Assembly (NCBI GenBank): GCA_965200835.1
Contig: OZ241390.1
Location: forward strand, 2,327,616-2,391,615
Reading direction: 5' to 3'
DNA length: 64,000 nt
Origin: Acidimicrobiia bacterium
Lineage (GTDB): Bacteria; Actinomycetota; Acidimicrobiia; Spongiisociales; Spongiisociaceae
A program made the translations under genes and the position numbers. Under the pieces are notes generated by a model. The model did no database searches. It saw only the letters and a list, made by a program, of their open reading frames with translations, and was not told the DNA's origin. Shown one piece after another: positions 41,567-57,907 of the stretch; the stretch's first letter is position 1; every line of letters starts with the position of its first letter.

Positions 41567-42409
41567 CTACCGGCCCGCGATCCGTTCATATATGGCAGGC
41601 CGGCGGTCCCGGTAGAACGCCCAATGGAGCCGGACCTCATCGATCAGATCCAGGTCCAGGTCCCTCACCACCACCTCATCGTCGGTGTCCGAAGCCGTGC
41701 CCCCGATGATCTCTCCCCGGGGGGAGGCGAAGTAGGAACTGCCGTAGTAATCCGTTCCCTCGAGGTTCTCGCTACCGACCCGGTTGATGGCTCCCACGAA
41801 ATACTCGTTGGCCACCGCGGCCGCCGGCTGTTCCAACTCCCACAGATACTTCGAGTGTCCCCGGGTGGTGGCTGAAGGATTGAATACGATCTTGGCTCCG
41901 GCCAGGCCTAGCTCGCGCCAACCCTCCGGGAAGTGGCGGTCGTAGCAGATATACACCCCGATCCGCCCCACGGCGGTGTCGAAAACCGGATATCCGAGGT
42001 TGCCCGGCCGGAAGTAGAACTTCTCCCAGAAACCCGCCACCTGCGGGATATGGGTCTTGCGGTACTTGCCCAGATAGGTCCCGTCGGCATCGATGACCGC
42101 CGCGGCGTTGTAGTAATGGCCGGTGTCCTCCACTTCGAAGATCGGCACGATCAGCACCATCGAGGTCTCACGGGCCAGTTCGATCATCCGGGTGATGGTG
42201 GGACCGTCGGGGATGGCTTCGGCGGTGGCGAAGTTCTCGTTCTCCTGATGGGTGCAGAAGTAAGGGGTGTTGAAGATCTCCTGGAAGCAGAGAATCTGCG
42301 CCCCCTGGTCGGCGGCCTGGCGGGCATAGTCGATGTTCTTGCCGATCATGGACTCCTTGTCACCCGTCCACTCGGTCTGGACGAGCGCCGCCCGCACCAC
42401 ATTCGCCAT
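41567..42409 (-). CDS. Nitrilase-superfamily hydrolase, beta-ureidopropionase-like
   Basis: CFQEIF, YRKTHIP, FWEKFYFRPG, ICYDRHFPE, FYRDRRP. Confidence 0.9.
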   Translation of the reverse strand: MANVVRAALVQTEWTGDKESMIGKNIDYARQAADQGAQILCFQEIFNTPYFCTHQENENFATAEAIPDGPTITRMIELARETSMVLIVPIFEVEDTGHYYNAAAVIDADGTYLGKYRKTHIPQVAGFWEKFYFRPGNLGYPVFDTAVGRIGVYICYDRHFPEGWRELGLAGAKIVFNPSATTRGHSKYLWELEQPAAAVANEYFVGAINRVGSENLEGTDYYGSSYFASPRGEIIGGTASDTDDEVVVRDLDLDLIDEVRLHWAFYRDRRPAIYERIAGR

Positions 42410-42450
42410 CCGGTCTCCTTCCTCGGGTCCGTCACGACACGGAATCGGAT

Positions 42451-42473
42451 CCAGTTTACAAACTGTAAAATGG
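42451..42473. promoter_or_regulatory. Palindromic operator between divergent carbamoylase genes
   Basis: CCA(G)TTTACA-AAC-TGTAAA(A)TGG, AT-rich in a GC-rich context. Confidence 0.7.
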
Positions 42474-42501
42474 TGACCCTAAACCGGGGAAGGGTGCTGA
42501 G

Positions 42502-43440
42502 ATGTCACGACGCATTACCGTCGGTGCGGGTCAGATGGGCCCCATCGGCAAGGATGAATCGAAGAGCGACGTAGTGGATCGCCTGCTGGTGCTGCTGCAT
42601 GAAGCGCACGATCAGGGGGTGGACTTGCTGGTCTACCCGGAACTGGCGATGACCACCTTCTTCCCCCGCTGGTTCGTGGAGAATCCGGCCGACTTCGACC
42701 ACTACTACCACCGCGAGATGCCCGACGCCGATACCAAGCGGCTGTTCGACGAGGCGCAGCACCTGGGGATCGGCTTCGTCCTCGGATACGCCGAGATCGA
42801 GACCGACGACCAGGGGACGGAACACCGTTACAACACCTATCTCCTGGTTGAGCGGGATGGTTCGGTGGTAGCCAAGTTCCGCAAGGTCCACATTCCCGGC
42901 CATGCTCAATACGAGCCGTGGCGGGCATTCCAGCACGCCGAGCGCCACTACTTCGAGCCGGGTCCGGATGGCTTCGGTACCTGGCGAGCCTTCGACGGCG
43001 TGGTCGGGATGGCCATCTGCAACGACCGGCGCTGGCCGGAAACCTACCGGGTGCTCGGGTTGCAGGGTGCCGAGCTGATTCTGATCGGCTACAACACTCC
43101 CATCCACTACGCCCCCGACCCCACCCAGAACTCCCTTTCTGCCTTCCACAACCATTTGGTCATGCAGGCGGGCGCGTACCAGAACGGGGCCTACGTGGTG
43201 GGAGTGGCCAAGGGCGGGATCGAGGAGGGGGTGGACAGCCTGGCCCAGAGTGTCATAATCGCCCCGTCCGGGCAGATCATCGCCCAGGCGATCACCATCG
43301 GCGATGAGGTGGTCTCAGCCACTATCGACCTGGACTTCTGCGACACCTACAAGCAGACCCTGTTCAACTTCGACTACTACCGGATGCCGGAGCACTACGG
43401 GCTCATAACCGAACGACGGGGTGCCATCTCTCCGGAGTAG
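42502..43440 (+). CDS. N-carbamoyl-D-amino-acid amidohydrolase (D-carbamoylase)
   Basis: YPELAMTTFFPRW, RKVHIPGH, FQHAERHYFEPG, ICNDRRWPE, GYNTP, AGAYQN. Confidence 0.9.
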   Translation: MSRRITVGAGQMGPIGKDESKSDVVDRLLVLLHEAHDQGVDLLVYPELAMTTFFPRWFVENPADFDHYYHREMPDADTKRLFDEAQHLGIGFVLGYAEIETDDQGTEHRYNTYLLVERDGSVVAKFRKVHIPGHAQYEPWRAFQHAERHYFEPGPDGFGTWRAFDGVVGMAICNDRRWPETYRVLGLQGAELILIGYNTPIHYAPDPTQNSLSAFHNHLVMQAGAYQNGAYVVGVAKGGIEEGVDSLAQSVIIAPSGQIIAQAITIGDEVVSATIDLDFCDTYKQTLFNFDYYRMPEHYGLITERRGAISPE

Positions 43441-43444
43441 GCCT

Positions 43445-44722
43445 ATGTTCGTGACCTCCCTGCGATGCACGGTCTGCCGGCTGTCGTACCATCCCCGGCC
43501 GGGTCGCTACGTGTGCGACGGCTGCGGTGAGGGCGGAACGCTGGATGTCCGGTACGACTACCCGGCTATCAGTGCAGTTCTCTCCCCGCGGACGCTGGCC
43601 TCGAAATCCGACCCTTCCATGTGGCGGTACCGGGCGTTGTTGCCGGTGGAAGCCGGTAGGCCGGTCTCGTCGCTGGGGGTGGGGGGAACGCCGCTAGTCC
43701 CATCGAGGCTGTTTGCTCGGGAGTTCGGGGTCGGGAAGCTCTGGATCAAGGACGAGGGACGCCAACCTACTGCTTCGTTGAAGGATCGGGCCTCGGCGGT
43801 CGCTCTGGCCCGGGCGGCCCAGGAAGGTGCCTCGGTGGTTACCACGGCCTCCACCGGTAATGCCGCGGCGGCGCTGGCCGGTCTGGCAGCTGGAACGGGT
43901 CAGCGTGCAGTGATCTTCGTACCGGACACCGCACCCCAAGCCAAAGTGGCCCAGCTCCTGGCCTTCGGCGCCACGGTGGCGCTGGTCGAGGGGGGATACA
44001 GCGCGGCGATCGAGGTCTGCCAGCAAGCCGTAGCCCGTTTCGGCTGGTACAACCGCACGACCGGGATCAACCCCTACGTGGGCGAGGGCAAGAAGACGGT
44101 GGCGCTCGAGATCGTCGAGCAGCTGGGTTGGGAGGCGCCCGAGGCCATATTCGTCAGTGTGGGCGATGGTTCGATCATCGGTGGAGTCCACAAGGGGCTT
44201 CGGGACGCAATGGCCCTCGGCTGGATCGAGCACATGCCGCGTATCTTCGGTGTCCAGGCCGCTGGTAGCGCGTATCTGGCCGATGCCTGGATGAACGGGG
44301 AGAATGTGCTGACCAAGCTGGCCATCGGTGCGAACACCCGAGCCGACTCGATCAGCGCTGATCTGCCGCGTGACCGGGTCAAGGCCATGGCCGCCGTCCA
44401 GGAGACTGGGGGCGCCTGGGTAGTGGTCGAGGACGAGGAGATCCTGTCCATGATCCCCTACGTGGCAGCCCGGTCCGGGGTGTTTCCGGAACCGGCCGCG
44501 GCGGCTGCCTTCGCGGGCTTGGCCGCGGTCAGCCGGGGGAGCCGGGCAGCTGGCGCTGGTGTAGGGGGGAGTGATCGGGTGGTGGTCATTTCCACCGGCT
44601 CAGGTCTCAAGGACATCCCCGCCACCATGGAAGGGATCAAACAGACCGGAGCCACCGCCCTTCGTGTCCGGCCGGGACCGACGGCCCTCGACCTGTTCGA
44701 AACCAGCCAGAATGGCACCTGA
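43445..44722 (+). CDS. Threonine-synthase-like fold-type II PLP enzyme with Zn ribbon
   Basis: CTVC..CDGC, SMWRY, GGTPL, PTASLKDRAS, ASTGNAA, EGKKT, SVGDG, TGSGLKD. Confidence 0.88.
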   Translation: MFVTSLRCTVCRLSYHPRPGRYVCDGCGEGGTLDVRYDYPAISAVLSPRTLASKSDPSMWRYRALLPVEAGRPVSSLGVGGTPLVPSRLFAREFGVGKLWIKDEGRQPTASLKDRASAVALARAAQEGASVVTTASTGNAAAALAGLAAGTGQRAVIFVPDTAPQAKVAQLLAFGATVALVEGGYSAAIEVCQQAVARFGWYNRTTGINPYVGEGKKTVALEIVEQLGWEAPEAIFVSVGDGSIIGGVHKGLRDAMALGWIEHMPRIFGVQAAGSAYLADAWMNGENVLTKLAIGANTRADSISADLPRDRVKAMAAVQETGGAWVVVEDEEILSMIPYVAARSGVFPEPAAAAAFAGLAAVSRGSRAAGAGVGGSDRVVVISTGSGLKDIPATMEGIKQTGATALRVRPGPTALDLFETSQNGT

Positions 44723-44743
44723 TTCAGCTCTGAGGAAGCCGAT

Positions 44744-46204
44744 ATGATCGATCTGACTGTTGACCGGACCGCTCTCGAAACCGTGGCTGGCCACACGAGG
44801 GAGCGGGCCGTGCGCATCCCGACCTTTGCCCAGATGCGGGACCCATCTCTGATCCCGGCGAAGGTCAAGCGTGACTTGGCAGGCATCGGCCTGTGGGATC
44901 TGCATCCGCTCAACCTGTTCCGGATCACCTGGCACAACGAGCCGGTTAGCCATGGGGGCGGGTTCGGGCCGGTCAATCACGTGGAGTGGCCTCGGGAGCT
45001 AACTGGAACCAGCGCCCGGATCGTGTCCCTGATCGGCAAGTGGTTTCCTACCGGCGCTCACAAGGTGGGAGCCGCCTTCGGATGCCTGGTTCCCCGGCTG
45101 GTGACCGGGCAATTCGATCCGGCTTCACAGAAAGCCGTCTGGCCCTCCACCGGCAACTACTGCCGGGGTGGTGCTTACGACTCGCACCTGTTGGGTTGCG
45201 ACTCGATTGCCATCCTTCCGGAAGGTATGAGCCGAGAGCGCTTCGAATGGTTACACACGGTAGCGGGGGAGATCATCAAGACCCCGGGTTCGGAGTCCAA
45301 CGTCAAGGAGATCTTCGACAAGTGCCACGAACTGGCCTGCTCCGGCGAGGACCTGATGATCTTCAACCAGTTCGACGAGTTCGGCAACTATCTGTGGCAT
45401 GCGTCGGTGACCGGACCGGCTATCGAGTCGATGCTTTCCTCAGTGATGGATAGGAACGACCGGTTCAGGGGAGTTGCGGTAACCACCGGATCGGCCGGCA
45501 CCATCGCGGCCGGTGATTACCTCAAGCAGCGCTTTCCCAGATCCCTGATCGCCGGTGGGGAAGCCATCCAGTGCCCCACCATGCTGCTGAACGGGTTCGG
45601 GGAGCACCGGATCGAGGGGATCGGCGACAAGCACATTCCGTGGGTCCACAATGTGAAGAACACCGATCTGGCCATCGGATTGGACGACGAGGCAGCCATA
45701 GCACTCACCCGGCTGTTCAATGAACCGGCCGGCCAGGACTATCTAGCCGACCAGGGTGTGGACTCCGCAACCGTGGAGCACCTGCCGCTGCTGGGTATTT
45801 CGGGGTCCGCCAACCTGCTGGCCGCTATCAAGATGGCCAAGTATTACGAGATGACCGATAGGGACGTGGTGGTCACGATCGCCACTGATTCGATGGACAT
45901 GTACCGGAGTCGTCTCCACGAGCTGACCGAGGACCGAGGCACCTTTACCACCCACGACGCGGTAGCTGCTTTCCATCGCCACCTGCTGGGTGCGTCCACC
46001 GAACATGTTCATGAGCTCGGTTACTACGACCGCAAGCGGATCCACAACCTCAAGTACTACACCTGGGTGGAGCAGCAGGGGAAGACCTACGAGGAGATCC
46101 AGGCCCAGTGGTATGACGATGATTACTGGACCGGTATCCAAGCCCTGGCCGACCCGATCGACCAGCTGATCGCCGAGTTCAACCACCTAACCGGACTGGG
46201 CTGA
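44744..46204 (+). CDS. Fold-type II PLP-dependent enzyme (cysteine synthase/ammonia-lyase-like)
   Basis: FPTGAHKVGA PLP lysine, PSTGNYCRGG, TGSAGT, HRIEGIGDKHIPW. Confidence 0.85.
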   Translation: MIDLTVDRTALETVAGHTRERAVRIPTFAQMRDPSLIPAKVKRDLAGIGLWDLHPLNLFRITWHNEPVSHGGGFGPVNHVEWPRELTGTSARIVSLIGKWFPTGAHKVGAAFGCLVPRLVTGQFDPASQKAVWPSTGNYCRGGAYDSHLLGCDSIAILPEGMSRERFEWLHTVAGEIIKTPGSESNVKEIFDKCHELACSGEDLMIFNQFDEFGNYLWHASVTGPAIESMLSSVMDRNDRFRGVAVTTGSAGTIAAGDYLKQRFPRSLIAGGEAIQCPTMLLNGFGEHRIEGIGDKHIPWVHNVKNTDLAIGLDDEAAIALTRLFNEPAGQDYLADQGVDSATVEHLPLLGISGSANLLAAIKMAKYYEMTDRDVVVTIATDSMDMYRSRLHELTEDRGTFTTHDAVAAFHRHLLGASTEHVHELGYYDRKRIHNLKYYTWVEQQGKTYEEIQAQWYDDDYWTGIQALADPIDQLIAEFNHLTGLG

Positions 46205-46377
46205 TCCTGGGCGGCGGCAGGTTCGAACTGGTCGGATGGGGGCTGTTCACGGTCTCCGGCGTGGTGTTTCTGGTGGCCGCTATACGAGACGGGGACACCC
46301 TGTTACTTTGGGGCTCGATCACCTGGTTGGTAGGGGTGGCTTTCTTTCTGGCCGCTCATCGCCGGAGCCGAAGCTGA
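46201..46377 (+). CDS. 58-aa two-TM microprotein (not in ORF track), non-canonical CTG start
   Basis: LILGGGRFELVGWGLFTVSGVVFLVAAIRDGDTLLLWGSITWLVGVAFFLAAHRRSRS*; CTG overlaps the upstream TGA. Confidence 0.55.
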   Translation: MILGGGRFELVGWGLFTVSGVVFLVAAIRDGDTLLLWGSITWLVGVAFFLAAHRRSRS

Positions 46378-46379
46378 GG

Positions 46380-46535
46380 CAGGTTAGGAGCTCACTACTA
46401 CTCAGCGTTCCGTACCTTCCTTATGATGGAAGAAACAAAGTATATCGGGTGGTCATTCATACACGAGATATCGAAGAACACAGCGCCTTATTCAGAGATC
46501 TCATAGATCTGGCTCAATCTCATTACAGTAGTTAG
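46380..46535 (+). pseudogene. Low-GC C-terminal gene remnant
   Basis: YDGRNKVYRVVIHTRDIEEHSALFRDLIDLAQSHY* is protein-like and GC drops abruptly; no credible start. Confidence 0.35.
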
Positions 46536-46674
46536 CAGGTTTAGCTTCCTGGATCTAGATCCCCGACCGTCTCTTCGCTCCAGACTGTCCGCTGGTCTCC
46601 ATAGGACACGAGCCGCTCCTAGCCGTCGCTATTCGGCACAGGCGTTGTGCCTTTACAAAGAGCCATTACCCATA

Positions 46675-47154
46675 TCACAAGCCGGATCGTTGGCGGGACC
46701 TCAACCGCGGGTAGCTTTCGAGCCAGGCGTACTTGTGTGCTTCACCAAGGGATAGCTGTGCTGTCGAAGTGTGATTTCCTAGGTAAGGAGCGGCGGCTCC
46801 TAGTTCCTCGACTCTCATCGAGTCTCTGAGGTGAGCACCCGGAGCATGTTCTGCGGCGTCGGGTGGGAGGCCGATGCCCAAGAATCCCTCGATTCTCGAC
46901 AGCCGCTGCACTATCTCGATCTGGAGGGTTCTGATCTCCGCTACTTCTTGGCGGATGCCACCCAACCCGGCTTGCATTTGCCACATGAATCCCAGCACGG
47001 ACAGGACGACGGCTAGGACCGCGGCCGCGATCTGCCAGGGCTTGATTACGGCCACCGCCAGCTGGGCGGCCACCGGGGAGACTACTGGCTGCTGTGTTCC
47101 GGTATGGGCCGTGACAGCCGGGTCGGTGGTCTCCTCCAGGGGCATGGTGGCCAT
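46675..47154 (-). CDS. Hypothetical single-TM/coiled-coil protein
   Basis: AGGAG RBS; TM IAAAVLAVVLSVLGFMW then IRQEVAEIR...RLSRIEGFL. Confidence 0.6.
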   Translation of the reverse strand: MATMPLEETTDPAVTAHTGTQQPVVSPVAAQLAVAVIKPWQIAAAVLAVVLSVLGFMWQMQAGLGGIRQEVAEIRTLQIEIVQRLSRIEGFLGIGLPPDAAEHAPGAHLRDSMRVEELGAAAPYLGNHTSTAQLSLGEAHKYAWLESYPRLRSRQRSGL

Positions 47155-47335
47155 CAGGCTCCTCTCATAACCCAGTGTTTACAGCTAACATATACTATAT
47201 AGCGTTGATAGGATACTGATAACCCGTAACACCGTGTTCCAGGCCTACATACCTGAGAAGAGACGATGGTTAACGGTACCGTCTCCCTACACCCGACCTC
47301 TCAAGCCTTGACAGAGGTCCGCCCCTGGCCCCGAC

Positions 47336-47788
47336 TTACGGAAGGCCCACTCCTATGATCCGGGTGGGATGGACGAAGACAGCGGCTCGGCGCTCGGCAG
47401 CCATCACCCGGTCGTACTCCTCCCAGTCCTCGTGGGTGCCGCCGGCAGCGGTGAACACCTCACGAAGTAGGTGGGCAACCCCAGACGGGTCGAACCCTTG
47501 GTATCCATCGTCGGGACCGATGATGGTGGTGGAGCCTTCGACACCTATCCATGACCATCCTGCCCGGAACACGATGGTGGCCTTCGGGATACGGCGCCAG
47601 TGTCGGAGCTTCACCGTGTTGCCCCGAACCACTAGCGCCACCACCTCCTCACCTGTGACCGGATGGGTCATCACGCCAGCGTTGACCAGTGTGGAGTGTA
47701 CCGACCGGTCGCGGCGAGCGAACGACACCACGGCCAGACCCTGGTCGGCGGCTACGAACCGGCGTACATCATCCATCGTATGGTTCAT
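47336..47788 (-). CDS. PPOX-class F420-dependent oxidoreductase
   Basis: GLAVVS..R.D, VNAGV..HP, GW.W.GVEG, LLREVF.AAGGTHEDWEEYDRVM. Confidence 0.88.
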   Translation of the reverse strand: MNHTMDDVRRFVAADQGLAVVSFARRDRSVHSTLVNAGVMTHPVTGEEVVALVVRGNTVKLRHWRRIPKATIVFRAGWSWIGVEGSTTIIGPDDGYQGFDPSGVAHLLREVFTAAGGTHEDWEEYDRVMAAERRAAVFVHPTRIIGVGLP

Positions 47789-47883
47789 GGCTCGCCTCCT
47801 TGGCTTGCTTGCCCAGCATAGATCCCTGCCTTTACCCGTAACCTCATCCTGTTAAACACCCCGTGTAGCGTCCCGCGATTGGA

Positions 47884-48425
47884 CTACTGCTGGCTCCTGG
47901 TGGCGAGGGCATGTAGCCGGGCAACGCGATGGTCGCGCTCGCCCAGATAGCGAACCAGCACGTGCGCTACCGCGTCGCGGTCGAGGGTACCGGCTGCGTT
48001 CATTTCCTCCAGGTCGGCCCAGTCCCTGGTCCGGTCGAAGAAAGCTTTGAAAACGGCGAGGTCGCGACAGGCGAGGAAAGGTATATCGACGCCGGCGAAC
48101 CGCTCCATGGTGGCCCGGCGGGCGGCAGCCTGATGAAATGGGGTGGTGTTGAAGAACACATCGACGGGGGTCGTGTCCCACCATAGGCGGGCTTGTCCGT
48201 TGCTAGCGATATCGTGCCGGTCGGCGCTGGTGACCCGCACTCCCTCAGGTAGAGCGGCCAGTGTCTCGGTTATCCGATCGAGGCCGACGAAGAGGTTTAT
48301 GTCGATGTCGATCGTGGCGCGGGCTCGCCGGGTACACCAGGCGAGTGCCAGCGCACCACCGAATGCATGAGGGACGGCGGCCCTGTCCAGCGCTGCAGTA
48401 TCACGATGCGTTCGACCAGGTTCAT
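47884..48425 (-). CDS. Nucleotidyltransferase (AbiEii/DUF6036-like toxin), frameshift near 48395
   Basis: ATG 48425 overlaps the HTH stop (ATGA); MNLVERIVIL then shifted AALDRAAVPHAFGGALALAW...RATIDID, FKAFFDRTRDWADL. Confidence 0.75.
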
Positions 48426-48733
48426 CGTCCGAATACCGGCATGTCGAGCGAAGGTGAAGGGCGGCTTGGGAATTCGGCGGCCAACTCCAGCACGGCGGCC
48501 AGCTCGGTACCCGGGTCGAGCCGTTCATCGCCCCGGATCCGTGGACTTAGCTCCCAGTCGAGGGTAAACCCGGCGGCCCTAACGATCCGGTCCAGGGTGT
48601 CACAGGTAGGGATCTTGGTTCCGGCCTCATAGGCCGCGATAGTGGAGTGGGAGGTACCTGCTCGAGTTGCGAGCGCCCTCAGCGTGAGACCAGCTCTGGC
48701 ACGAGCCATTCGGATCACTTCGCCAGCGTTCAC
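48422..48733 (-). CDS. XRE-family HTH protein (antitoxin/regulator)
   Basis: IRMARARAGLTLRALATRAGTSHSTIAAYEAG...P. Confidence 0.88.
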   Translation of the reverse strand: MNAGEVIRMARARAGLTLRALATRAGTSHSTIAAYEAGTKIPTCDTLDRIVRAAGFTLDWELSPRIRGDERLDPGTELAAVLELAAEFPSRPSPSLDMPVFGR

Positions 48734-48746
48734 TTAGGGACCATCC

Positions 48747-48764
48747 GGTATCCGATCAGATACC
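48747..48764. promoter_or_regulatory. Near-perfect palindrome upstream of the HTH/nucleotidyltransferase operon
   Basis: GGTATC(C)GATC(A)GATACC, 14 bp from the start codon. Confidence 0.6.
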
Positions 48765-48877
48765 ACAATAACCCATGCTTGGGACTGTCCCGTCGACTCG
48801 ACCTTTGCCGTATCGATCGGCATGAGCCGCCGGTAGAGTCCGTGTTTGTTGCATATGGCCAGGAGGCGCAAAGACCG

Positions 48878-51826
48878 ATGCGGCGGGTGATTCTGCTGGT
48901 AGCCGCGGTGGGGCTGTGGTTGGCCAATCCGGGTGGTCTATTGGCCGGAGATACACCTGCGCCGACTGGGATTCGGGTGGTGTCCGTTGGTGACGGAACG
49001 GTGACGGTGGCCTGGGAGGGTGTACCCGAAGCGACCCTGTACAGGGTGTACTACCGGCCGGGTGCGGTAGAGCCGGGTAGTGAACCGGAGGACGATTGGT
49101 GGTGGGGTTCGCCTCAGTTCGATTCCGATAGCCGTGAGGGCACCGTGCCCAATCTGACGAATGGTGTCTGGTATGAGCTGCGGGTTGCGGCCGGGGAGTT
49201 CTGGTCGGAGGAGTCCGTGCTGGCTCGGCCGGGCACTGACTCTGATAATGCCCGTCTCCCGGGCGTACCCGCCGATTTGAGGGTGGTCGAGGAGCTGGAA
49301 GGGTCGGTGACGGTTGCTTGGGATCCGCCTGAGGGTGGGGCTGCGGGCTATGAAGTGTGGCATAAGCCTGAAGGTTTCTACGGTCAGGATACGCCGTCGT
49401 GGGTTATGTCCGGGAGTGTGGATGGTGACGTTGGTTCGTATACGATCAGCGGGCTGGTTGACTTTCGGCGTTATCAGGTGATTGTGGCGGCGATTAATGA
49501 CACAGGTAGGGGCCTGTTTACCCCACCGGTGTGGCCGACAGCCGGTGGTGCGCTAGCTGGAGAGATGTCTGCGCCGACGGGGGTTAGGTTGGTGGCCGTT
49601 GGTGAGGGAACGGTGACAGTGGCCTGGGAGGGTGTACCCGAAGCGACCCCGTATAAGGTGGTTTACCGGCCGGTTGCGGTAGTGCCGGGTAGTGAACCGG
49701 CGGGCGATGGGTGGTGGGGTTCGCCGTTGTTCGACTCGGAGAGCCGTGAGGGCACCGTGCCCAATCTGACGAATGGTGTCTGGTATGAGCTGCGGGTTGC
49801 GGCTGGGGAGTTCTGGTCGGAGGAGTCCGTGCTGGCTCGGCCGGGTCCGGACTCCGATAGTGCCCGCATTCCAGGTGTCCCAGCCGATTTGAGGGTGGTG
49901 GGGGAGCTGATCGGGCAGGTTACGGTTGCTTGGGATCCGCCTGAGGGTGGGGCTGCGGGCTATGAAGTGTGGTACCGGCCGGTAGGTGTTTCTGGCGAGG
50001 ATCCGCCGTCGTGGGTTATGTCCGGGAGTGTGGATGGTGATGTTGGTTCGTATACGATCAGCGGCCTGGTTGACTTTCAACGTTATCAGGTGATTGTGGC
50101 GGCGGTTAATGACACCAGTCGGGGGCCGTTTACCCAACCGGTGTGGCCGGCAGCGAACGGTGCCGATCTTGATCCTCTTGGTCTAATCGCCAATTATCGG
50201 CACGCGACCGCGTATACCACCGGGTCTGACCTGTGGGAAGTCTGGGCGTGTGACGTTCCCGACGGCCACGAACATATCGACATCGACGGGATATCCGCCC
50301 GTCTGAATCGGGCACTACCCCCATACTTCCGATGGTTGTCCGGTGGGTTGTACCAGCCGGACTTCATAGCGGGTGGCACCGTTCGCGTGAACCAGCGCGG
50401 AACGGGGAAGACGGGAGAATATGGCTGCGCCGATGCGGTGGCTGAACTGACCGGCGGTGATGCACATGGAGCGCTAATCATTCTCGATAAGAGCGGGGGA
50501 GTTGCTTTTGGGGGTACCGGCGGATTCGGGTATGTGTACCCCGACGACGGTACGGTAAGGTACGAACAGTCGAAGTTCCCCGCCAACGACAGGACAGTTC
50601 ACGCACCAGCACCCTACGTACGGTCGAGTGTTGGATTTGAGGCCATAGCCCACGAGGTCGGACATGCGTTGGGTTGGCCGCACTCGTATGGCGGTAACCG
50701 GCAACTACCGGCTTGGGTACAGGATCTGGAGTTGGATTCTGACGAATACGACAACCCAATGGATCTCATGTCCCAAGTGCCGGGCGTGGAATACTCGGGA
50801 CCGGATGGGATCAGCGCTGGAACCATCGCGATAAACCGATACGCCGCGGGATGGCTCCCTCTAGAGACGGTGAAGGTTCACAGCGGTCAACCCACCAGTT
50901 ACCTACTCAGTCCGCCCGGCGTGACAGGCACCCAGATGGTGGTGCTTCCGTCCGGCCAGCCGGGCCGGTTCGTCACCTTGGGAGCGAGGCTGAGAGAGGG
51001 CTACGACCGGGGGCTGCCAGTTGAAGGGGTCGAGGTGTACCGGGTGGATCAGCGCGCTATCGCCTGTGATGCCGAGAGGGAAGGTTTGTCGTGCACGACA
51101 ACGGAGCGCCGCACCAGTCAAATCCCACCACCTTCGAGCGACGACGGTCGGTCAGTACGCCAGTGGACAGATCATGTTTACGGTCCGGGCGACACGTTGA
51201 CTGTCGACGGGTATCGGGTAGACGTTGTCGAACGGGTCGGTGACCGCTTCCAATTGTGGGTTGGCCCACCTCATCGGGGACAGTTCGCCGACGACGACGG
51301 GAACGTCCACGAACCGAACATCGACCGGCTGGCTGACCTGTCGGTGGCGGTTCCTTGCGACTCGGACTTGAGGCATTACTGCCCCGATCGGCCGATCACT
51401 CGCGGTGAAATGGCCATGTTCCTGGTGCGGGCAGTCGACGGTGGCGATCCGCCCCCTTCCCGACGGTCCCGTTTCTCGGATGTGCCGGCAAACGTCGGGT
51501 TGTCAGCGTATGTGGAACGTCTGGCCGAACTGGGGATCACTGCCGGATATCCGGACGGGACCTTCCGGCCGGACTCGCCGGTCAACCGAGGCCAGATGGC
51601 TGTGTTCCTTACGAGGGCGTTTCCCGGTCTGGCGAGCATCGACACACCGTCGGGGGTGTTCATCGATGTGCCCGTAGACGACCCTTATGCGGTGGCTGTT
51701 GAGACGATCAGGGCCGCGCAGATCACCGCCGGTTGCGCCGCCGGTCCCGACCGGTTCTGTCCCGAAAGGCCGGTACGTAGGGATCAGATGGCAACGTTCC
51801 TGGCCAAGGCGTTGGGGCAGAGTTAG
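48878..51826 (+). CDS. Secreted surface protein: 4 fibronectin type III domains, zincin metallopeptidase (HEVGH), C-terminal SLH domains
   Basis: Signal peptide; VTVAW...Y.V.Y...L..G..Y motifs; AHEVGHALGWPHSY, YDNPMDLMS; ITRGEMA, VNRGQMA, VRRDQMA SLH motifs. Confidence 0.88.
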   Translation: MRRVILLVAAVGLWLANPGGLLAGDTPAPTGIRVVSVGDGTVTVAWEGVPEATLYRVYYRPGAVEPGSEPEDDWWWGSPQFDSDSREGTVPNLTNGVWYELRVAAGEFWSEESVLARPGTDSDNARLPGVPADLRVVEELEGSVTVAWDPPEGGAAGYEVWHKPEGFYGQDTPSWVMSGSVDGDVGSYTISGLVDFRRYQVIVAAINDTGRGLFTPPVWPTAGGALAGEMSAPTGVRLVAVGEGTVTVAWEGVPEATPYKVVYRPVAVVPGSEPAGDGWWGSPLFDSESREGTVPNLTNGVWYELRVAAGEFWSEESVLARPGPDSDSARIPGVPADLRVVGELIGQVTVAWDPPEGGAAGYEVWYRPVGVSGEDPPSWVMSGSVDGDVGSYTISGLVDFQRYQVIVAAVNDTSRGPFTQPVWPAANGADLDPLGLIANYRHATAYTTGSDLWEVWACDVPDGHEHIDIDGISARLNRALPPYFRWLSGGLYQPDFIAGGTVRVNQRGTGKTGEYGCADAVAELTGGDAHGALIILDKSGGVAFGGTGGFGYVYPDDGTVRYEQSKFPANDRTVHAPAPYVRSSVGFEAIAHEVGHALGWPHSYGGNRQLPAWVQDLELDSDEYDNPMDLMSQVPGVEYSGPDGISAGTIAINRYAAGWLPLETVKVHSGQPTSYLLSPPGVTGTQMVVLPSGQPGRFVTLGARLREGYDRGLPVEGVEVYRVDQRAIACDAEREGLSCTTTERRTSQIPPPSSDDGRSVRQWTDHVYGPGDTLTVDGYRVDVVERVGDRFQLWVGPPHRGQFADDDGNVHEPNIDRLADLSVAVPCDSDLRHYCPDRPITRGEMAMFLVRAVDGGDPPPSRRSRFSDVPANVGLSAYVERLAELGITAGYPDGTFRPDSPVNRGQMAVFLTRAFPGLASIDTPSGVFIDVPVDDPYAVAVETIRAAQITAGCAAGPDRFCPERPVRRDQMATFLAKALGQS
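48959..50150 (+). repeat. Intragenic tandem duplication, 612-bp period (two FN3 pairs)
   Basis: GCGCCGAC.GGG at 48959 and 49571; long identical tracts such as AGCCGTGAGGGCACCGTGCCCAATCTGACGAATGGTGTCTGGTATGAGCTGCGGGTTGCGGC. Confidence 0.95.
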
Positions 51827-51903
51827 CGACTCGGGGACTCCCTGACCCGCCACTTGCATAACCGGTGAGCGTTTGTCCCCGGGCTGGGCGAGAATCTGAT
51901 CTG

Positions 51904-53685
51904 TTAGGGCCGAACGCCCTTCTCGGAGGGTGGCAGTATGAACCCCTCGGCGCCGTTCAATAGCAGGAGCAGGTCACCCGTCCACTGCGCACCGGCCGCG
52001 TTGGGTTGCACCCAGTAGCCATCAGGATCCTGATGAACCAGGAAGGCCTGTTCGGTCTCCTGCTGGAACCGGTGTTCGGACAGGAAGAGGCGGGGTTTGA
52101 TGACCGCCGGATCGCCAATCTCGGGGCAGAAGACCATGCAGTTCCCGCACTCGTTGCACAACTCGGTCAGCACCAGGTATTGCTGGAGTCCCACCGCATC
52201 GAGTTCGGGTGGGGTCGGTATCCGGAAGAAGGCATCGTTGGGGCACACGGTCACGCAGAAGTTGCAGGCTACGCACCCCCACATCTGCAGCTCGTGGTCC
52301 ACCGCCCGGGGCAGCTTCGAGTTGCCGGCCAGTGTGTACCGGCCGTTGGTGGCCGGATCGTGGAGGGTGGTGATGTAGCCCGCCACCGCTCCCATCCCGT
52401 TGGACAGCGAGCCACGGTAGGTCTGCCACTCGGTCAGCGAGGCCGCTCCCGCTGACGTCATCGCGTTCTGCAGATTCTTGAGCATGGGCTTCAGCCGCCC
52501 GTAGCCACCCGGCTTGAGCAGGTCGGAGCAGATGGTGATGGGAGCAAGGCCGAGAGCGGCGGCATCGGCCAGGTTCTCCTTGGTGATGCCGGCCGAGAAC
52601 GAGACCTGGATGTCCGCATCCTGACCCTCCACCTTGAGCATGCCGGGCAGGGCTCGGTGTAGCTCGCCCAGCAGTGTGGTGGACACGACATGCAGAGGTG
52701 GTCCGGACATGTACATGGTCTCGTCGGGCATGAACCCCTTGGTGTTCTCCACGACCAGCGTGTTGGTGAGCTTGATGCCGAACCGCCGTCCGTGTTCGGT
52801 GGCGAAGCGGTCCAGCTCCCGGATCAGCTCCAGGCCCCGATCGAACTGGAGGTCGTTGTCGAAGTCGGCCTGGCGTAGCACCGTCGATTCGTACCCCAGA
52901 GTGCGCTGCACGATCTCCTGGACCCGATCGAATCCCAGCAGGGTGGGGTTGAGTTTCACGATCACGTCCAGCCCGTGTCGGGTGATGAGATGCTTGGTGA
53001 TCGATTCGATCTCATCGGGGGGACATCCGTGGAAGGTCGACAGCGTCACCGTGTCGGCGATCCGCGATGGGAAGTCCAGGTCCCGATACCGGGAGAATGC
53101 GCCGTCTATTTCGGGACGCAACCGCTTGATCTCCTCTGTGGCATCCATCATGGAGTCGATGAACCAGGCCACCTGATCGGTGGAGATCCCGGCCAGGTCG
53201 TAACCGACCGACAGGTCGAAGATGTGCGGACCGGGATCGTGGCCGATATAGGGGGTGAGCTCGTCCCACTGACGCAGCATCTCGAGGATCATCCAGGCCT
53301 TGACATACTCCTCGAGCGACTGGGGGATCTTCAGTTCCTGGCTCCACTCGATGTTGTAGCCGACGGTCTCCATGTCGATGCACGGTCGCCCGATCTTCAG
53401 CTCGTCGAGGATCTGCACCGTTTTGAGCTCCATCAGCCGCCCGCCCGCCAACCACGACAGCACGATGTTCTGAGCCATCTGGCTGTGTGGTCCAGCCGCC
53501 GGTCCTACAGGGGTGGCCGCCGGCCTGCCCAGGAAGTCGATCGAGATGTCGGGTCCGTCGGACACGTTGAAGAACCGGGCGATAGGGAGATCGAAGATCC
53601 GCCGGCGGGACTCCCACTCGTAGGCGATCCGGTCCAGCAGGTCGGACAGTCCGAACGGAGTGAGCTCCTCATGAGTGTCTGTCAT
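51904..53685 (-). CDS. YgfK-like protein: N-terminal DHODH-like barrel plus 4Fe-4S ferredoxin, lacking the central GltD-like part
   Basis: GPAAGPHSQMAQNI, ELKTVQILD, RPCID, YNIEWSQEL, STFHGCPPDEIE, KLNPTLLG, KLTNT, CSDLLKPGGYGR, CVACNFCVTVCPN, CNECGNC. Confidence 0.85.
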   Translation of the reverse strand: MTDTHEELTPFGLSDLLDRIAYEWESRRRIFDLPIARFFNVSDGPDISIDFLGRPAATPVGPAAGPHSQMAQNIVLSWLAGGRLMELKTVQILDELKIGRPCIDMETVGYNIEWSQELKIPQSLEEYVKAWMILEMLRQWDELTPYIGHDPGPHIFDLSVGYDLAGISTDQVAWFIDSMMDATEEIKRLRPEIDGAFSRYRDLDFPSRIADTVTLSTFHGCPPDEIESITKHLITRHGLDVIVKLNPTLLGFDRVQEIVQRTLGYESTVLRQADFDNDLQFDRGLELIRELDRFATEHGRRFGIKLTNTLVVENTKGFMPDETMYMSGPPLHVVSTTLLGELHRALPGMLKVEGQDADIQVSFSAGITKENLADAAALGLAPITICSDLLKPGGYGRLKPMLKNLQNAMTSAGAASLTEWQTYRGSLSNGMGAVAGYITTLHDPATNGRYTLAGNSKLPRAVDHELQMWGCVACNFCVTVCPNDAFFRIPTPPELDAVGLQQYLVLTELCNECGNCMVFCPEIGDPAVIKPRLFLSEHRFQQETEQAFLVHQDPDGYWVQPNAAGAQWTGDLLLLLNGAEGFILPPSEKGVRP

Positions 53686-54112
53686 TGCTCCGCCCCCGTG
53701 TCCGTCCCTCGCGACGCCCATCGGGATTGGCGCCCGGTCAGCCAAATGTCATGGTCGAAACCCAACGTGTCACACACCTGGGGTAGCTTGTCATTTGCCA
53801 AGACACCGTCGGCCGGTACCGGACGTCCATCCGACCGCATCGGGTTCATCTCACTGAGAGGCGCCTCCCGGAGGCTAAGGCGACGCGCCCACAGACTCGG
53901 ACAGGTGGTGGCGGGGGAGGGTCCAGATGTAGTGGGCGTGGGGCGGTTTTTCGCGTTCTCGGGGTTTGGTCGCTGGCAGTGGATCACCGGTGCCGGCGCA
54001 TCTGCGGCTCGGCGAAGGTCGGCGCAGTGCAGCGACCTCTTTGCCTGCTGGGCACTTCGCGGGATCAGGATCACCTTCAGCCGGGACTGGCGGTCGCGGC
54101 GGTGGAACAGCC

Positions 54113-55141
54113 TCATAGCCGGGCGTGGAGTCGGGTTGCTTGTTCGCGGGCTTTGGCACGAACCTCCTCGGCGTCCACCTTGGTGGGGGAGCCGTCCTGG
54201 TAAACCACCTCGCCGTCTACTTCGACCTTCAGCGGGCGGATCCCGGCGGTGAAGGCCACATGCCAGGGATCCATCGGGTTGTAGCTCCACGTCACCCGAT
54301 CGTTGCGGCATTCGGGGAACAGGTCCCAGCCGGTCCTGAGCCAGCTCCAGGCTGTCTCCGGGCTGGCGGTCACATCCACCGACCGATGCATCACGTAGGC
54401 CAGCCGAAAGGATTCGATCATGTTGGCCCCGATCCCATCGGTCCCCAGGGCGGTCGGGTTGGGAAACCGGGCCGGATCGGCGTACCCGACCGAGTTGTTG
54501 AGGTTGGAACGGGGATTGTGCAGGATGGTCCCGGCCAAGCTGTGGTCGGTGGGCAAATGGACACCGTGGGCGAGCAGCCAGGAGTCCTGGGACAGCCCTT
54601 CCAGGCGCTGGGGAGCATCCCGATCCTCCGGACCCTCGGCCACATGGACGTGCACTCCCACTCCGAACTCGTCGCCTAGGGCGGCAGCCTTTTCCAGGGT
54701 CGACTGTTCGCAGGTGAAGGCGGCGTGGATACCCACCATCCCGTCGCCCCCTTCCGACAGGAACCGCCGGTTCTCCTCCAGGCCTCGCCGGGCATTGTCG
54801 GGGCCATGCCGGTCGGTCACCCCGTAGCAGGTCCGCACCCTCACCCCCACCTCGGCGCACGCCTCTGCGATCACCGACAGACTTCCCTCGATCGCATTGG
54901 GCGACTCGTGATGATCCACGATGGCGGTGGTGCCCGACTCCAGCGCCTCGAGGGCGCCAAGCATGGCTGACCAGCGGATCATCTCCAGGTCGAGGGCCGT
55001 GTCCAGCCGCCACCAGATCTGTTCCAGTATCTCCTGGAAGTTGGTGGGCGTCTCCGGCGGGGCGGGCATGCCTCGGGCCAGGGTCGAATACAGATGATGA
55101 TGGGCGCACACCAGCCCCGGAGTGACATTCGCAGCATTCAT
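54113..55141 (-). CDS. SsnA-like amidohydrolase
   Basis: PGLVCAHHHLYS.LARG, ILEQIWWRLD, DHHESP, GIHAAFT, HVHVAEG, HNPRSN, LGTDG; ATGA overlap with xdh. Confidence 0.88.
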   Translation of the reverse strand: MNAANVTPGLVCAHHHLYSTLARGMPAPPETPTNFQEILEQIWWRLDTALDLEMIRWSAMLGALEALESGTTAIVDHHESPNAIEGSLSVIAEACAEVGVRVRTCYGVTDRHGPDNARRGLEENRRFLSEGGDGMVGIHAAFTCEQSTLEKAAALGDEFGVGVHVHVAEGPEDRDAPQRLEGLSQDSWLLAHGVHLPTDHSLAGTILHNPRSNLNNSVGYADPARFPNPTALGTDGIGANMIESFRLAYVMHRSVDVTASPETAWSWLRTGWDLFPECRNDRVTWSYNPMDPWHVAFTAGIRPLKVEVDGEVVYQDGSPTKVDAEEVRAKAREQATRLHARL

Positions 55142-57723
55142 CGCCGGGCGATCGGCTGATGCACAGCCATCGGAAGCCGATTGCGCCACTGCCCATCCAC
55201 CTCATGCAGGGCCGCCGCTACCGCACCGGCGGTCGGGACCAGACCGATCTCGCCGACTCCCTTGATGCCGTACGGGGCACGAGGCTGGGGAACCTCCACC
55301 AGGATCACGTCGACCGGTGGCATGTCCTTGGGTCGGATGATCCCCAGGCTGCGCAACGTCATGTTGGTGGGTCGGGCCTGGTCGTCCGCCGGGAACTCCT
55401 CCGTCAGGGCATACCCGAGGCCCATGTGGACCGAACCTTCGATCTGGCCCTCGCACAGCACCGGATGTATCGCCTTCCCCACATCGTGCGCGGCGACCAC
55501 CCGCTCGATCCGCCCGGTCCTCGGGTTGGCGATCACCAGCTGGGCGGCGTAACCGAAGGCAGAGTGGATGGTCGGGTTGGCCAGCCCCTCCTTGAGAGAG
55601 TTGGTCCAATCGACCCGATGCTCGCCGTGGTAGTCGACTCCGGGCAATCTCCCCCCTGCATCGGCTGCCCGGCAGGCGGCCTGCACCGCTCCCGCTCCCA
55701 TCAAAGTCCCCCGTGACCCGGTGGTCTGGCCCGCCCCCAGCTCCCGGCTGGTGTCAACCAGCACCCGGATCGATTTGGGATCGACGCCCAGCTCCTCCGC
55801 CGCCACCTGCTGGGCCACCGTGTGGATACCCTGGCCCATTTCCGTCCAGCAGTGCCGCACCTCCACGGTCCCACTCCGGGTGAACCGAACCACCGCCCGG
55901 GCCACTTCCTTGAACCCGTTGCCCAAACCGCTGTTCTTCAGACCGAGGCCGACACCCACCGCCTTACCAGCCGCTCTTGCCGCGTCATAGTGGGGTTTCA
56001 CGGCCTCCAGGCACTCCACAGCCCCCTGGCAGCCGTCGTCCATCACCTGACCAGGTCCCCACACCACGCCCGGACGGATGGCGTTGCGGTGGCGCATCTC
56101 CCACCCCGAGATCCCCACCTGCTCCGCCAAGCGATCCATGACCCCTTCCATGGCGAACTGCGCCTGGTTGGCCCCGAACCCACGAAAGGCACCGCACACC
56201 GGATTGTTGGTCCGAGCGGCCACCGCCTTCACATCAATGTTGGGCACCACGTACGGGCCACTAGCATGACCCGCCGCCCGTTCCAACACCTTCATGCCCA
56301 CCGAGGCATACGGACCGGAGTCACCGAGCATCCGGGCCTTGAGGGCGGTGAGCCGGCCGTGGCGGTCACAGGCTGCCCACAGCTCGATCTCGATCGGATG
56401 CCGCTTGGCATGGATGCGCAGCGACTCCTCCCGTGACAGGGTGCATTTGACAGGACGGCCCAACAGGTGGGAAGCGAGGGCGGTCTGGGCCTGGTTGGCC
56501 ATGTCCTCCTTGCCCCCGAACGCACCCCCGTTGGAAACCAGTTCCACGGTGATGAGAGAAGGGTCGATACCCAGCACCGAGGCCACCTGGTCCCGGTCGT
56601 CCCACACTCCCTGACCGCCCGAATAGAGCATCAACCGCCCGTTCCCCGCCGGCACCACCAGGGTCGACTCGGGTTCCAGGAAGGCATGCTCCACCCGCTG
56701 GGTCACGAACGTCTCATGGATCCGGTAAGGCGAGGAGCGGTAGGCGGAGTCGAAGTCACCCCGCGCATACTTGGAGACGGACAGGACGTTCCCCTCCAGA
56801 CCCCACACCGCATCCTCGGAGGAAGCCACCGCTTTCGCCGGATCGGTGAAGGGCTCCAGCACCCGGTATTCCACCTCGATAGCCTCGGTAGCTTCTCGGG
56901 CGGCCAGTCGATCATCGGCCACCACGATCGCCAGCACGTCCCCGTAGTACGAAGTCCGGCCGCCTTCGGGGATCATCACCGGCCAGTCCTTGTGAATCAG
57001 CCCCACCCGCAGCTCTCCCGGCACATCCGCCGCGGTGAAAACGGCCTCGACTCCGGGGATCGCCTCAGCCGCGCTGGTGTCGATCCTCAAGACATCGGCC
57101 CGAGCGTGGTCGGTGAGGCGTAGTGCTCCGTGGAGGATGCCGTCGAAGCGGATGTCGTCTATGTAGTCCCGATCCCCCAGAGCCAGCTCGTAGCCCTCGT
57201 ACTTGATGCCGGACTTGCCTATCCCGCCCGAAGTCTCCATCGGCGGAATCTCTCCGGCCACCAGCATGTCGACCGCGTCGAAGATCTTGGTGTAGCCGGT
57301 GCAGCGACACAGATGCGCCCCCAGCCGACCGGCCGTGATCCGCCGCTTGAGTCGGGAGCCCTTCTGGTCGATCAGTGCCTTGGTTCGCACCAGTATTCCG
57401 GGAGTGCAGAACCCGCACTGCAATGCGCCGGTGACTGCGAAGGCCGAGGCCAGGCGATCCCGCTCCACCGGGTGGAAGCCCTCGAGGGTGACCACCTCCT
57501 TGCCCGCGACCTTGTCGAGCGACAGGACGCACGCCACCAGGGCCCTCCCGTTAACCAGCACCGTGCAGCAACCGCACTGGCCCGACGGAGCGCAGCCGTC
57601 CTTGGCGGAGGTGATATCGAGCTCCTCCCGGAGGGCCGACAGCAGATGGGGATGGTCGGCTCGGACCGAGACATCCGCTCCGTTGAGTCTGAAACCCACT
57701 GTCCTGCTAGCCGTCAGGGTCAT
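55138..57723 (-). CDS. Selenium-dependent-type xanthine dehydrogenase (fused 2Fe-2S and Mo domains)
   Basis: KDGCAPSGQCGCC, QCGFCTPG, HLCRCTGY, VEHAFLEPE, GGAFGGKED, AFRGFGANQ, GQTTGSR, GIKGVGEIG. Confidence 0.88.
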   Translation of the reverse strand: MTLTASRTVGFRLNGADVSVRADHPHLLSALREELDITSAKDGCAPSGQCGCCTVLVNGRALVACVLSLDKVAGKEVVTLEGFHPVERDRLASAFAVTGALQCGFCTPGILVRTKALIDQKGSRLKRRITAGRLGAHLCRCTGYTKIFDAVDMLVAGEIPPMETSGGIGKSGIKYEGYELALGDRDYIDDIRFDGILHGALRLTDHARADVLRIDTSAAEAIPGVEAVFTAADVPGELRVGLIHKDWPVMIPEGGRTSYYGDVLAIVVADDRLAAREATEAIEVEYRVLEPFTDPAKAVASSEDAVWGLEGNVLSVSKYARGDFDSAYRSSPYRIHETFVTQRVEHAFLEPESTLVVPAGNGRLMLYSGGQGVWDDRDQVASVLGIDPSLITVELVSNGGAFGGKEDMANQAQTALASHLLGRPVKCTLSREESLRIHAKRHPIEIELWAACDRHGRLTALKARMLGDSGPYASVGMKVLERAAGHASGPYVVPNIDVKAVAARTNNPVCGAFRGFGANQAQFAMEGVMDRLAEQVGISGWEMRHRNAIRPGVVWGPGQVMDDGCQGAVECLEAVKPHYDAARAAGKAVGVGLGLKNSGLGNGFKEVARAVVRFTRSGTVEVRHCWTEMGQGIHTVAQQVAAEELGVDPKSIRVLVDTSRELGAGQTTGSRGTLMGAGAVQAACRAADAGGRLPGVDYHGEHRVDWTNSLKEGLANPTIHSAFGYAAQLVIANPRTGRIERVVAAHDVGKAIHPVLCEGQIEGSVHMGLGYALTEEFPADDQARPTNMTLRSLGIIRPKDMPPVDVILVEVPQPRAPYGIKGVGEIGLVPTAGAVAAALHEVDGQWRNRLPMAVHQPIARR

Positions 57724-57780
57724 GACATCCTCCCACCGGATCCTGGATACACCGACGAGCACTCCGGAGGCACGCGCTAC

Positions 57781-57797
57781 TTTTACATTTTGTCAAA
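57781..57797. promoter_or_regulatory. Operator-like palindrome between xdh and the divergent regulator operon
   Basis: TTTTACA-TTT-TGTCAAA; matches the 42455 site at 11 of 12 arm positions. Confidence 0.65.
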
Positions 57798-57907
57798 AAA
57801 ACCGGATTCGTGCAACGTGTTTTCCGGTCGGAGGCGGTCATTCTCGCGCTGTGCCGCTGGCCCGGCGAGTCGGTATACGCTAGGTGTGGTCGACTCGAGG
57901 AGCATGA

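Follow-up and report, generated by a model that had tools for sequence, protein, structure and literature searches.

A palindrome of 15 bp occurs twice, 15 kb apart, in a 64,000-nucleotide stretch of DNA from an Acidimicrobiia bacterium (assembly GCA_965200835.1, contig OZ241390.1, forward-strand positions 2,327,616 to 2,391,615); this whole stretch is the window of our analysis. The two copies, which we call operators O1 and O2, lie in divergent promoter regions. O1 belongs to a block of genes for CN-hydrolases and pyridoxal-phosphate (PLP) enzymes, and O2 to a block headed by a gene for a xanthine dehydrogenase (XDH)-family enzyme and by a gene pair encoding a small DUF77 (Thiamine_BP) protein and an HTH_22 protein. 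Sequence comparison with relatives makes it likely that O1 and O2 are conserved operators of one local regulon, bound by a split DUF77/HTH_22 regulator and directed at purine breakdown; two gene blocks for this purpose would most likely stand under one regulator. New in this analysis are the operator, its specificity across the genome and the proposed regulatory tie from one block to the other. Present as two natural variants in one genome, the operator provides a concrete DNA target.

A palindrome shared by two divergent promoter regions

O1 (42455-42469, TTTACAAACTGTAAA) is a perfect palindrome of 6-3-6 design, and O2 (57782-57796, TTTACATTTTGTCAA) is one position off a perfect palindrome; neither is assigned a strand. 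The half-sites, TTKACA and TGTMAA, have inverted-repeat symmetry and lie 9 bp, about one helical turn, apart, centre to centre. Read directly on opposite strands, O1 and O2 are the same at 15 of 17 positions (TTTTACAGTTTGTAAAC versus TTTTACATTTTGTCAAA). O1 is situated between divergent CN-hydrolase genes (41567-42409, minus strand, and 42502-43440, plus strand), and O2 between the XDH gene, which starts at 57723 on the minus strand, and the Thiamine_BP/HTH_22 pair at 57908-58506 on the plus strand. A first-pass annotation of this DNA had reported the same palindrome in these two divergent promoter regions, and both copies are exactly where it placed them.

The motif TTKACA-N3-TGTMAA, searched as TTKACANNNTGTMAA, is rare. 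Allowing at most one mismatch, the window contains 2 matches, O1 and O2, versus 0.09 expected, and at least two matches were obtained in 0 of 100 dinucleotide-preserving shuffles. In the whole genome of 2,835,419 bases (63.6% G+C) the exact pattern is confined to O1 and O2 and is not frequent at unrelated promoters; only 10 genomic places are within two mismatches of a perfect palindrome, with O1 and O2 the best among them. Two other positions in the source genome were rejected as sites, 329304, which has the 13-base core pattern only, and 1993754, which has two mismatches; both are in low-G+C DNA with no related gene adjoining.

The palindrome is also conserved. We counted sites in 29 genomes of the family, with the reversed pattern as a control, and found 45 exact matches versus 4; nearly all of the 45 are at the two orthologous places. 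HTH_22 orthologs with 72-79% identity are present in 18 of the 24 other family genomes searched, and there are 2 further matches with 54% and 50% identity. All 20 family loci that we fetched carry a 15-mer of the form TTTACATT(T/C)TGT(C/T)AA upstream of the DUF77/HTH_22 pair, and it adjoins the XDH gene wherever that gene is in view, while the intergenic sequence around it cannot be aligned by eye. Three of the loci (L004, L009 and L011) have a second identical copy of O2 in tandem, 18 bp away; counting L020 and L043 as well, tandem copies are spaced 18-22 bp apart, with one O2-locus copy at 22 bp.

At the O1 side, orthologs of the 312-residue CN-hydrolase (CNh312) with 63-87% identity are found in 27 of 41 relatives. 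We fetched 25 of these loci, 2 of which end before the upstream region, leaving 23 usable. The motif is located 30-90 bp before the CNh312 start codon in 18 of the 23; in 14 it is identical to O1, and the counterpart in L022 has one mismatch. Two genomes, G005 and G006 (loci L025 and L026), retain a -10-like hexamer, TAAAAT, some 45 bp ahead of the CNh312 start codon, where the core of O1 has decayed to GTCACAAACCCTAAAAT. The CNh312 orthologs of G009, G014 and G025 have no motif, and these genomes have no HTH_22 match. As a separate observation, the hydrolase block of G005 and G006 is about 0.8-1.2 Mb from the regulator locus.

A wider survey, with one genome per species, returned 327 relatives, of which we examined the best 80 loci (L069-L086 overlap the family genomes). 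By title, all 80 are Acidimicrobiia, Actinomycetota or unclassified metagenome-assembled genomes, the closest being Candidatus Spongiisociaceae. The remark in the first-pass annotation that a similar gene pair adjoins urate-degradation genes in streptomycetes found no support: no Streptomyces title occurs among these best 80 of 327, and streptomycete genomes were outside the search. In 37 of the 80 loci, XDH lies next door in divergent orientation. The motif, with at most one mismatch, is present in the gap in 35 of these 37, and the remaining two have TGTACGTTTTGTCAA at the same spot; variants in the wider relatives are TTGACATTTTGTCAA and TTAACAATCTGTCAA. In a symmetrised profile of 79 distinct sites, conservation falls to background directly outside the 15-mer, and the invariant positions are ACA-N3-TGT. 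The central triplet is A/T-rich, though unconstrained by the search pattern, and reads AAA or TTT in 48 of the 79 sites. Genome G018 (locus L046) has an extra match, which precedes genes for a 208-residue unknown protein and an MscS-like protein.

Because the palindrome is kept at orthologous promoters while the flanks diverge, we regard it as a conserved cis-element, and it is very likely that the 15-mer is functional and beyond chance. The first-pass annotation had judged a chance origin improbable, and the counts in the window, in the genome and at the orthologous HTH_22, CNh312 and XDH loci agree with it.

The DUF77/HTH_22 pair and its probable link to both blocks

The first gene to the right of O2 encodes a Thiamine_BP/DUF77 (MTH1187/YkoF-like) protein of 76 residues (57908-58138, plus strand; PF01910, 34.5 bits versus a cutoff of 24.9) covering 74 of the 92 profile positions. 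Its profile matches PDB entries 1lxn (MTH1187), 1yqh and 1vk8 (TM0486). The second encodes an HTH_22 protein of 123 residues (58135-58506, plus strand; PF13309 at residues 54-115, 65.6 bits versus a cutoff of 29.6), whose ATG overlaps the Thiamine_BP stop codon as ATGA. A structure model of the HTH_22 protein (pLDDT 87.8) has a short alpha-beta3-alpha N-terminal domain followed by a helical helix-turn-helix (HTH) part. Foldseek comparison of this model with the PDB gave nothing at E <= 0.001, the best hit being Spo0J (1vz0) at 0.036, and the sequence profile had no match in the PDB. No PAS family was found in the protein at E up to 10, and no AsnC-type HTH or RAM family matched it.

In all 20 family loci the HTH_22 gene is directly preceded by the Thiamine_BP gene, and the two are adjacent in 61 of the 80 wider loci. 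Among longer homologs, which form 32 clusters, 15 clusters combine PF01910 with PF13309 in a single chain of about 217-233 residues; both domains were confirmed above cutoff in P0013 and P0023, and the N-terminus of P0013 is 49% identical to the DUF77 protein of the window. Because the two are fused in these relatives' proteins, we read the DUF77 and HTH_22 proteins as the split form of a single-chain regulator, and by sequence they look like a sensor part and a DNA-binding part, respectively. The single-chain homologs thus lend support to the earlier suggestion that the YkoF-like protein is the likely sensor. A complex prediction for the two proteins scored 0.00, which carries no weight for or against binding.

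We also tallied operator and regulator gene in 101 genomes of the order. An HTH_22 ortholog is present in 28 and the exact motif in 27; both are found in 22 genomes, HTH_22 only in 6, the motif only in 5 and neither in 68, a descriptive tally since the genomes are related. Put differently, 22 of the 28 genomes that have the HTH_22 gene also have the motif, versus 5 of the 73 that do not. Completeness is 72-89% for four of the five motif-only genomes, and in these the missing gene may be unassembled. The HTH_22 gene is single-copy in the source genome, and the genes of the two blocks yielded no further DNA-binding domain. The co-occurrence favours the HTH_22 protein, already named in the first-pass annotation, as the candidate binder. 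Two genomes with no HTH_22 match have tandem copies of the pattern with differing central triplets (G061:C11:108286-108332 and G094:C55:2742-2784), which may reflect a diverged regulator or an unassembled gene.

Gene order in relatives ties the two blocks together. In L100, L115 and L148 they are merged around a single operator, with CNh312 on one side and, on the other, an operon in which the ortholog of the 280-residue CN-hydrolase (CNh280) precedes the Thiamine_BP and HTH_22 genes. XDH directly follows CNh312 on the same strand in L111, L115 and L139, and the HTH_22 gene is 0.5-2.2 kb from CNh312 in G012, G035, G036 and G008. The first-pass annotation had taken the shared motif as direct evidence of one regulon. 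The shared, conserved operator and the merged divergons of relatives speak for one regulon; "direct evidence" overstates what the motif alone conveys. In other Acidimicrobiia (L102, 4391-8353; L146, 4450-6605), a further operator lies just past the HTH_22 gene and before an ABC transporter with a Bmp/PnrA-type binding protein, which probably serves nucleoside or purine uptake. The source genome, with O1 and O2 as its only sites, has no operator before such a transporter.

The pair has partial likenesses to known regulators. As far as they are described in the literature available to us, YheO-like/HTH_22 regulators (E. coli YheO, C. jejuni Cj1387c and Streptomyces lincolnensis SLCG_7083) share with it a C-terminal HTH_22 domain after a small sensor-type module. 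In contrast to them, described with an N-terminal PAS domain, the protein here has no PAS domain and only 123 residues, and the sensor role is apparently held by a separate or fused DUF77/Thiamine_BP domain. No operator of any YheO-like/HTH_22 family member is given in the titles or abstract beginnings of the literature found. Like MTH1187, YkoF and other DUF77 proteins, the 76-residue protein is a small ligand-binding fold; unlike them, it is shorter and occurs coupled to, or fused with, a DNA-binding protein. To our knowledge, the DUF77/Thiamine_BP fold has so far been met only in orphan structural-genomics proteins and in a thiamine-binding protein. Thiamine is not indicated as the ligand here; the genomic context, purine catabolism, argues for another one. 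A conceptual parallel is Lrp/AsnC with stand-alone RAM proteins, where a small alpha/beta ligand module, fused or separate, tunes an HTH protein at AT-rich palindromes of a local catabolic regulon; the likeness is one of concept only, as both the DNA-binding domain and the family of the sensor fold are different here. Titles and abstract beginnings of the literature found mention neither a DUF77-HTH_22 regulator nor its operator or ligand, a view that leaves subscription journals and preprint supplements outside.

Operator position, mode of regulation and competing explanations

A consensus scan of 41400-59000 for sigma-70 promoters (-35 and -10 hexamers 16-18 nt apart) found no hexamer pair in the intergenic regions of O1 or O2; the 3 promoter-like sites in the scanned interval are all elsewhere. 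A conserved -10-like hexamer (TAAAAT/TAAAGT), about 30 bp ahead of the start codon at 42502, is overlapped by the right half of O1. In four RNA-labelled runs from a single study, contig cover stops at 42436 and resumes at 42491 around O1, and around O2 it stops at 57761 and resumes at 57812. These edges are 23-29 bp from the operator centres, and the operators themselves are uncovered (42437-42490 and 57762-57811), a part to which we give no weight. One contig spans the genes from the YgfK-like gene through XDH. Such contigs cannot show transcript starts, strand or level, and DNA carry-over is possible. If they derive from RNA, the operator would be inside all four core promoters, which would weakly favour repression.

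The model that we consider likely is as follows. A dimer of the HTH_22 protein, together with the translationally coupled DUF77 protein, would recognise the half-sites TTKACA and TGTMAA. Each operator would lie in the core of a back-to-back promoter pair, so that four transcription units would be controlled: the CNh280 gene, the carbamoylase/PLP-enzyme operon, the operon of XDH and its SsnA-like and YgfK-like companions, and the regulator's own operon, including a cytochrome c gene. The operators probably act as repressor sites; given where they lie, the most likely mode would be promoter occlusion, presumably lifted by binding of a purine-derived metabolite to the DUF77 half.

The palindrome might instead be promoter DNA, in which back-to-back AT-rich hexamers (a TTGACA-like -35 and a TAnnnT-like -10) mimic an inverted repeat. 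The right half of O2 does read TTGACA on the reverse strand, the textbook -35 hexamer; TAAAAT and TAAACT straddle O1, and TAAAAT is the hexamer kept in G005 and G006 despite the decayed core. Both sites are between divergent genes, and the RNA-library contigs begin 15-22 bp outside the motif edges, which is weak support. However, neither site has a hexamer pair at 16-18 nt spacing, and the invariant ACA-N3-TGT of O1 has the putative -10 boxes on either side. Were the palindrome an ordinary promoter element, it should occur at more than about two sites per genome and should not track one regulator gene, and tandem copies 18-22 bp apart suit protein-binding sites better; we consider this explanation quite improbable. 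It is also improbable that the operator is real and bound by another regulator, for example a global one for purines or nitrogen, with the HTH_22/DUF77 pair merely a target. HTH_22 is, to be sure, only a predicted binder: its recognition helix recurs, with one Phe/Val variant in L123, in 30 wider loci that lack a nearby motif, and 5 of the 73 genomes that have no HTH_22 match carry the pattern, in two cases as tandem copies. Against this stand the co-occurrence of motif and gene (22 of 28 versus 5 of 73), the place of the site next to the HTH_22 gene, which holds for 20 of 20 family loci and for 35 of 37 loci with an XDH neighbour, the lack of any further DNA-binding domain found in either block, and the incompleteness of four of the five motif-only genomes, where the gene may be unassembled.

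A different question is whether the regulator is an activator, or a dual regulator, that with its ligand recruits RNA polymerase to weak promoters without a -35 element. Neither intergenic region has a recognisable -35/-10 pair, weak -35 elements are common in actinobacteria, and the genes are represented in RNA-labelled libraries and so are not silent in situ. If the contigs are RNA, however, the operator centres, at 23-29 bp from contig cover, leave too little room for activation of class I or class II, and one site would need to activate in both directions. We therefore hold activation to be unlikely, while giving it some room.

The proposed model, of repressor sites for a DUF77/HTH_22 regulator of purine breakdown, has several observations weighing against it. 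The exact pattern is missing from 6 of the 28 HTH_22-positive genomes (G005 has a one-mismatch variant) and present in 5 of the 73 negatives, and these counts come from related, non-independent genomes and overstate the support. Thirty wider loci, in which neither XDH nor a hydrolase is a neighbour, lack the motif in their vicinity, yet share the recognition helix VSRITIYNYLN (VSRFTVYNYLN in L123); either autoregulation is not universal or the sites of those proteins are elsewhere. With the helix essentially invariant, its covariation with motif variants is uninformative. HTH_22 is the predicted, and most likely, binder of O1 and O2. The repressor mode is read from positions only, and the half-sites resemble promoter hexamers (TTGACA and TAAAAT), so part of the conservation could reflect promoter function. 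On the pathway side, the enzymes score under the cutoffs of the E. coli pathway families (TIGR03311, 811/830; TIGR03315, 433/835; TIGR03314, 238/455), and no HyuA, YgeW, YgeY or clear YgeX equivalent was found in the two blocks.

Predicted target enzymes and neighbouring features

The leftward operon at O2 begins with a fused 2Fe-2S/molybdopterin enzyme of the XDH family (55138-57723, minus strand). It reaches 811.1 bits with TIGR03311 (Se_dep_XDH; cutoff 830.45) and 186 with TIGR03313, the model for E. coli XdhD (cutoff 1101.9). Fer2_2, Ald_Xan_dh_C and MoCoBD_1/2 all match, and its start at 57723 was fixed from ribosome-binding site and translation. The ATG of the next gene overlaps the XDH stop (ATGA) and opens an SsnA-like amidohydrolase of 342 residues (54113-55141, minus strand; TIGR03314, 237.7 bits, E 1.6e-70, cutoff 455.5; PF01979, 2.4e-23). 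This protein covers positions 51-340 of the 441 in TIGR03314, lacks about 50 N-terminal positions and is the best match to the SsnA model in the source genome. The third gene encodes a piece of a YgfK-like reductase (51904-53745, minus strand; TIGR03315, 1.5e-129, 433 bits versus a cutoff of 835), consisting of the N-terminal, FMN-type part (positions 4-398 of 1012) and two 4Fe-4S motifs, with Fer4 families at residues 469-546; it has no FAD/NAD(P)H domain.

Recognition of the SsnA-like gene corrects a gene model, as it lies under a longer off-frame open reading frame (ORF) of 507 codons (53682-55205, minus strand), first taken as a conserved unknown without a family. We reject the 507-residue frame as an artefact of the high-G+C SsnA-like gene, because the other frame matches the SsnA model and Amidohydro_1 and is more strongly conserved. 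In related loci the SsnA-like frame is 73-90% identical over its full length, at 330-600 bits, in the 37 loci listed of the 40 that match it, versus 35-65% identity and at most 253 bits for the 507-residue frame.

Between the SsnA-like and YgfK-like genes, at 53746-54112, there is a 370-nt stretch without a convincing ORF. RNA-library contigs end inside it in 2 of the 4 runs (X1 at 53800 and 53951; X3 at 53958 and 53966), and an internal promoter, an attenuator or an unknown RNA might be located there. An Rfam scan of 41000-59500 at E <= 1 returned no match, so no known riboswitch explains this gap or the intergenic regions. As to whether the TIGR03311-like XDH needs selenium, two observations bear on the question: YqeB, a marker of selenium-dependent maturation, was not found in the source genome, and selD is present outside the window (C1:1817688-1818614), with one in-frame TGA that is probably selenocysteine.

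A small gene for a c-type cytochrome (58503-58841, plus strand; PF13442, 1.7e-15) comes next in the regulator operon, and its start codon overlaps the stop codon of HTH_22. A homolog is found behind HTH_22 in the 18 closest loci (L069-L086) but in no locus of L087-L148. The cytochrome may be the electron partner of the XDH, which has no FAD part of its own.

The O1 block consists of two CN-hydrolases and two PLP enzymes. Transcribed leftward from O1 is CNh280, an N-carbamoyl amidase-like protein of 280 residues (41567-42409, minus strand; PF00795, 8.3e-65), for which the best NCBIfam model is TIGR03381, aguB (258.7 bits versus a cutoff of 410); as described above, its ortholog heads the Thiamine_BP-HTH_22 operon in L100, L115 and L148. 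The rightward operon begins with the carbamoylase-like CNh312 (42502-43440, plus strand; PF00795, 2.1e-46). It continues with a threonine-synthase-like PLP enzyme of 433 residues (43421-44722, plus strand; PF00291, 6.7e-70; NF006050, 282.5 bits versus a cutoff of 303), the counterpart of which adjoins the CNh312 ortholog in L148. The next gene encodes a cysteine-synthase-like PLP enzyme of 486 residues (44744-46204, plus strand; PF00291, 6.1e-12; TIGR01139, 83 bits, far under cutoff).

A preprint on reductive urate breakdown (bioRxiv 10.1101/2025.05.19.654654) assigns urate dehydroxylation to XdhD, dearomatisation to YgfK, ring opening to SsnA and HyuA, ureido cleavage to YgeW/UacY and YgeY, and diaminopropionate cleavage to YgeX, and it reports SsnA clusters in Actinomycetota. 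Like the E. coli and C. difficile cluster for urate (2,8-dioxopurine) as presented there, the operon here appears to combine an XDH-family molybdenum enzyme, a YgfK-like domain and an SsnA-like amidohydrolase, all three scoring below the curated cutoffs, and the same regulon would add putative ureido-cleaving enzymes and PLP enzymes. It differs from that cluster in its YgfK-like protein without the FAD/NAD(P)H part, its SsnA-like protein short of about 50 N-terminal positions, and a cytochrome c gene in the regulator operon; in addition, CN-hydrolases are found here where YgeW/UacY and YgeY act in the described cluster. No hydantoinase, carbamoyltransferase, M20 peptidase or D-aminoacylase family was found in the two blocks, which have two CN-hydrolases and two PLP enzymes instead, and the diaminopropionate-lyase model gave 50.8 versus a cutoff of 276. 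Because of the scores below cutoff and the lack of HyuA in the blocks, we treat the pathway as a remodelled relative of the reductive urate pathway and not as a member of it; by sequence, its enzymes look like a remodelled version, in which ureido cleavage would fall to the carbamoylase-type CN-hydrolases. The regulatory tie thus nominates the carbamoylase/PLP block for the missing downstream enzymes of the actinobacterial version.

The word "regulator" is absent from two papers on the reductive urate pathway. The E. coli cluster itself has a regulator of another kind, the sigma-54 activator YgeV. The regulon suggests that sponge-associated Acidimicrobiia place purine salvage or degradation under regulation. 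We speculate further, with less than even confidence, that the DUF77 fold is the ligand sensor of an undescribed class of one-component regulators (DUF77 plus HTH_22, split or fused) widespread in Acidimicrobiia, and that the operator switches on a remodelled reductive purine route which, in aerobic sponge-associated actinobacteria, is wired to a c-type cytochrome and not to NAD(P)H or ferredoxin.

Elsewhere in the window, a second molybdenum hydroxylase (FAD subunit and large subunit) and a CoxG-like gene (12004-15715 and 24572-25135) have no motif and are apparently outside this regulon. Two stretches of lower G+C (0.54-0.57) with few confident ORFs, at 16000-22000 and 46000-47000, may be acquired DNA. 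Between the two regulated blocks, 48647-51826 encodes a surface protein of 1059 residues with four FN3 domains and an SLH domain, adjoined by a weak AbiEii-like nucleotidyltransferase gene at 47884-48528. The GC skew is very strong locally, reaching 0.31 at 49-50 kb.

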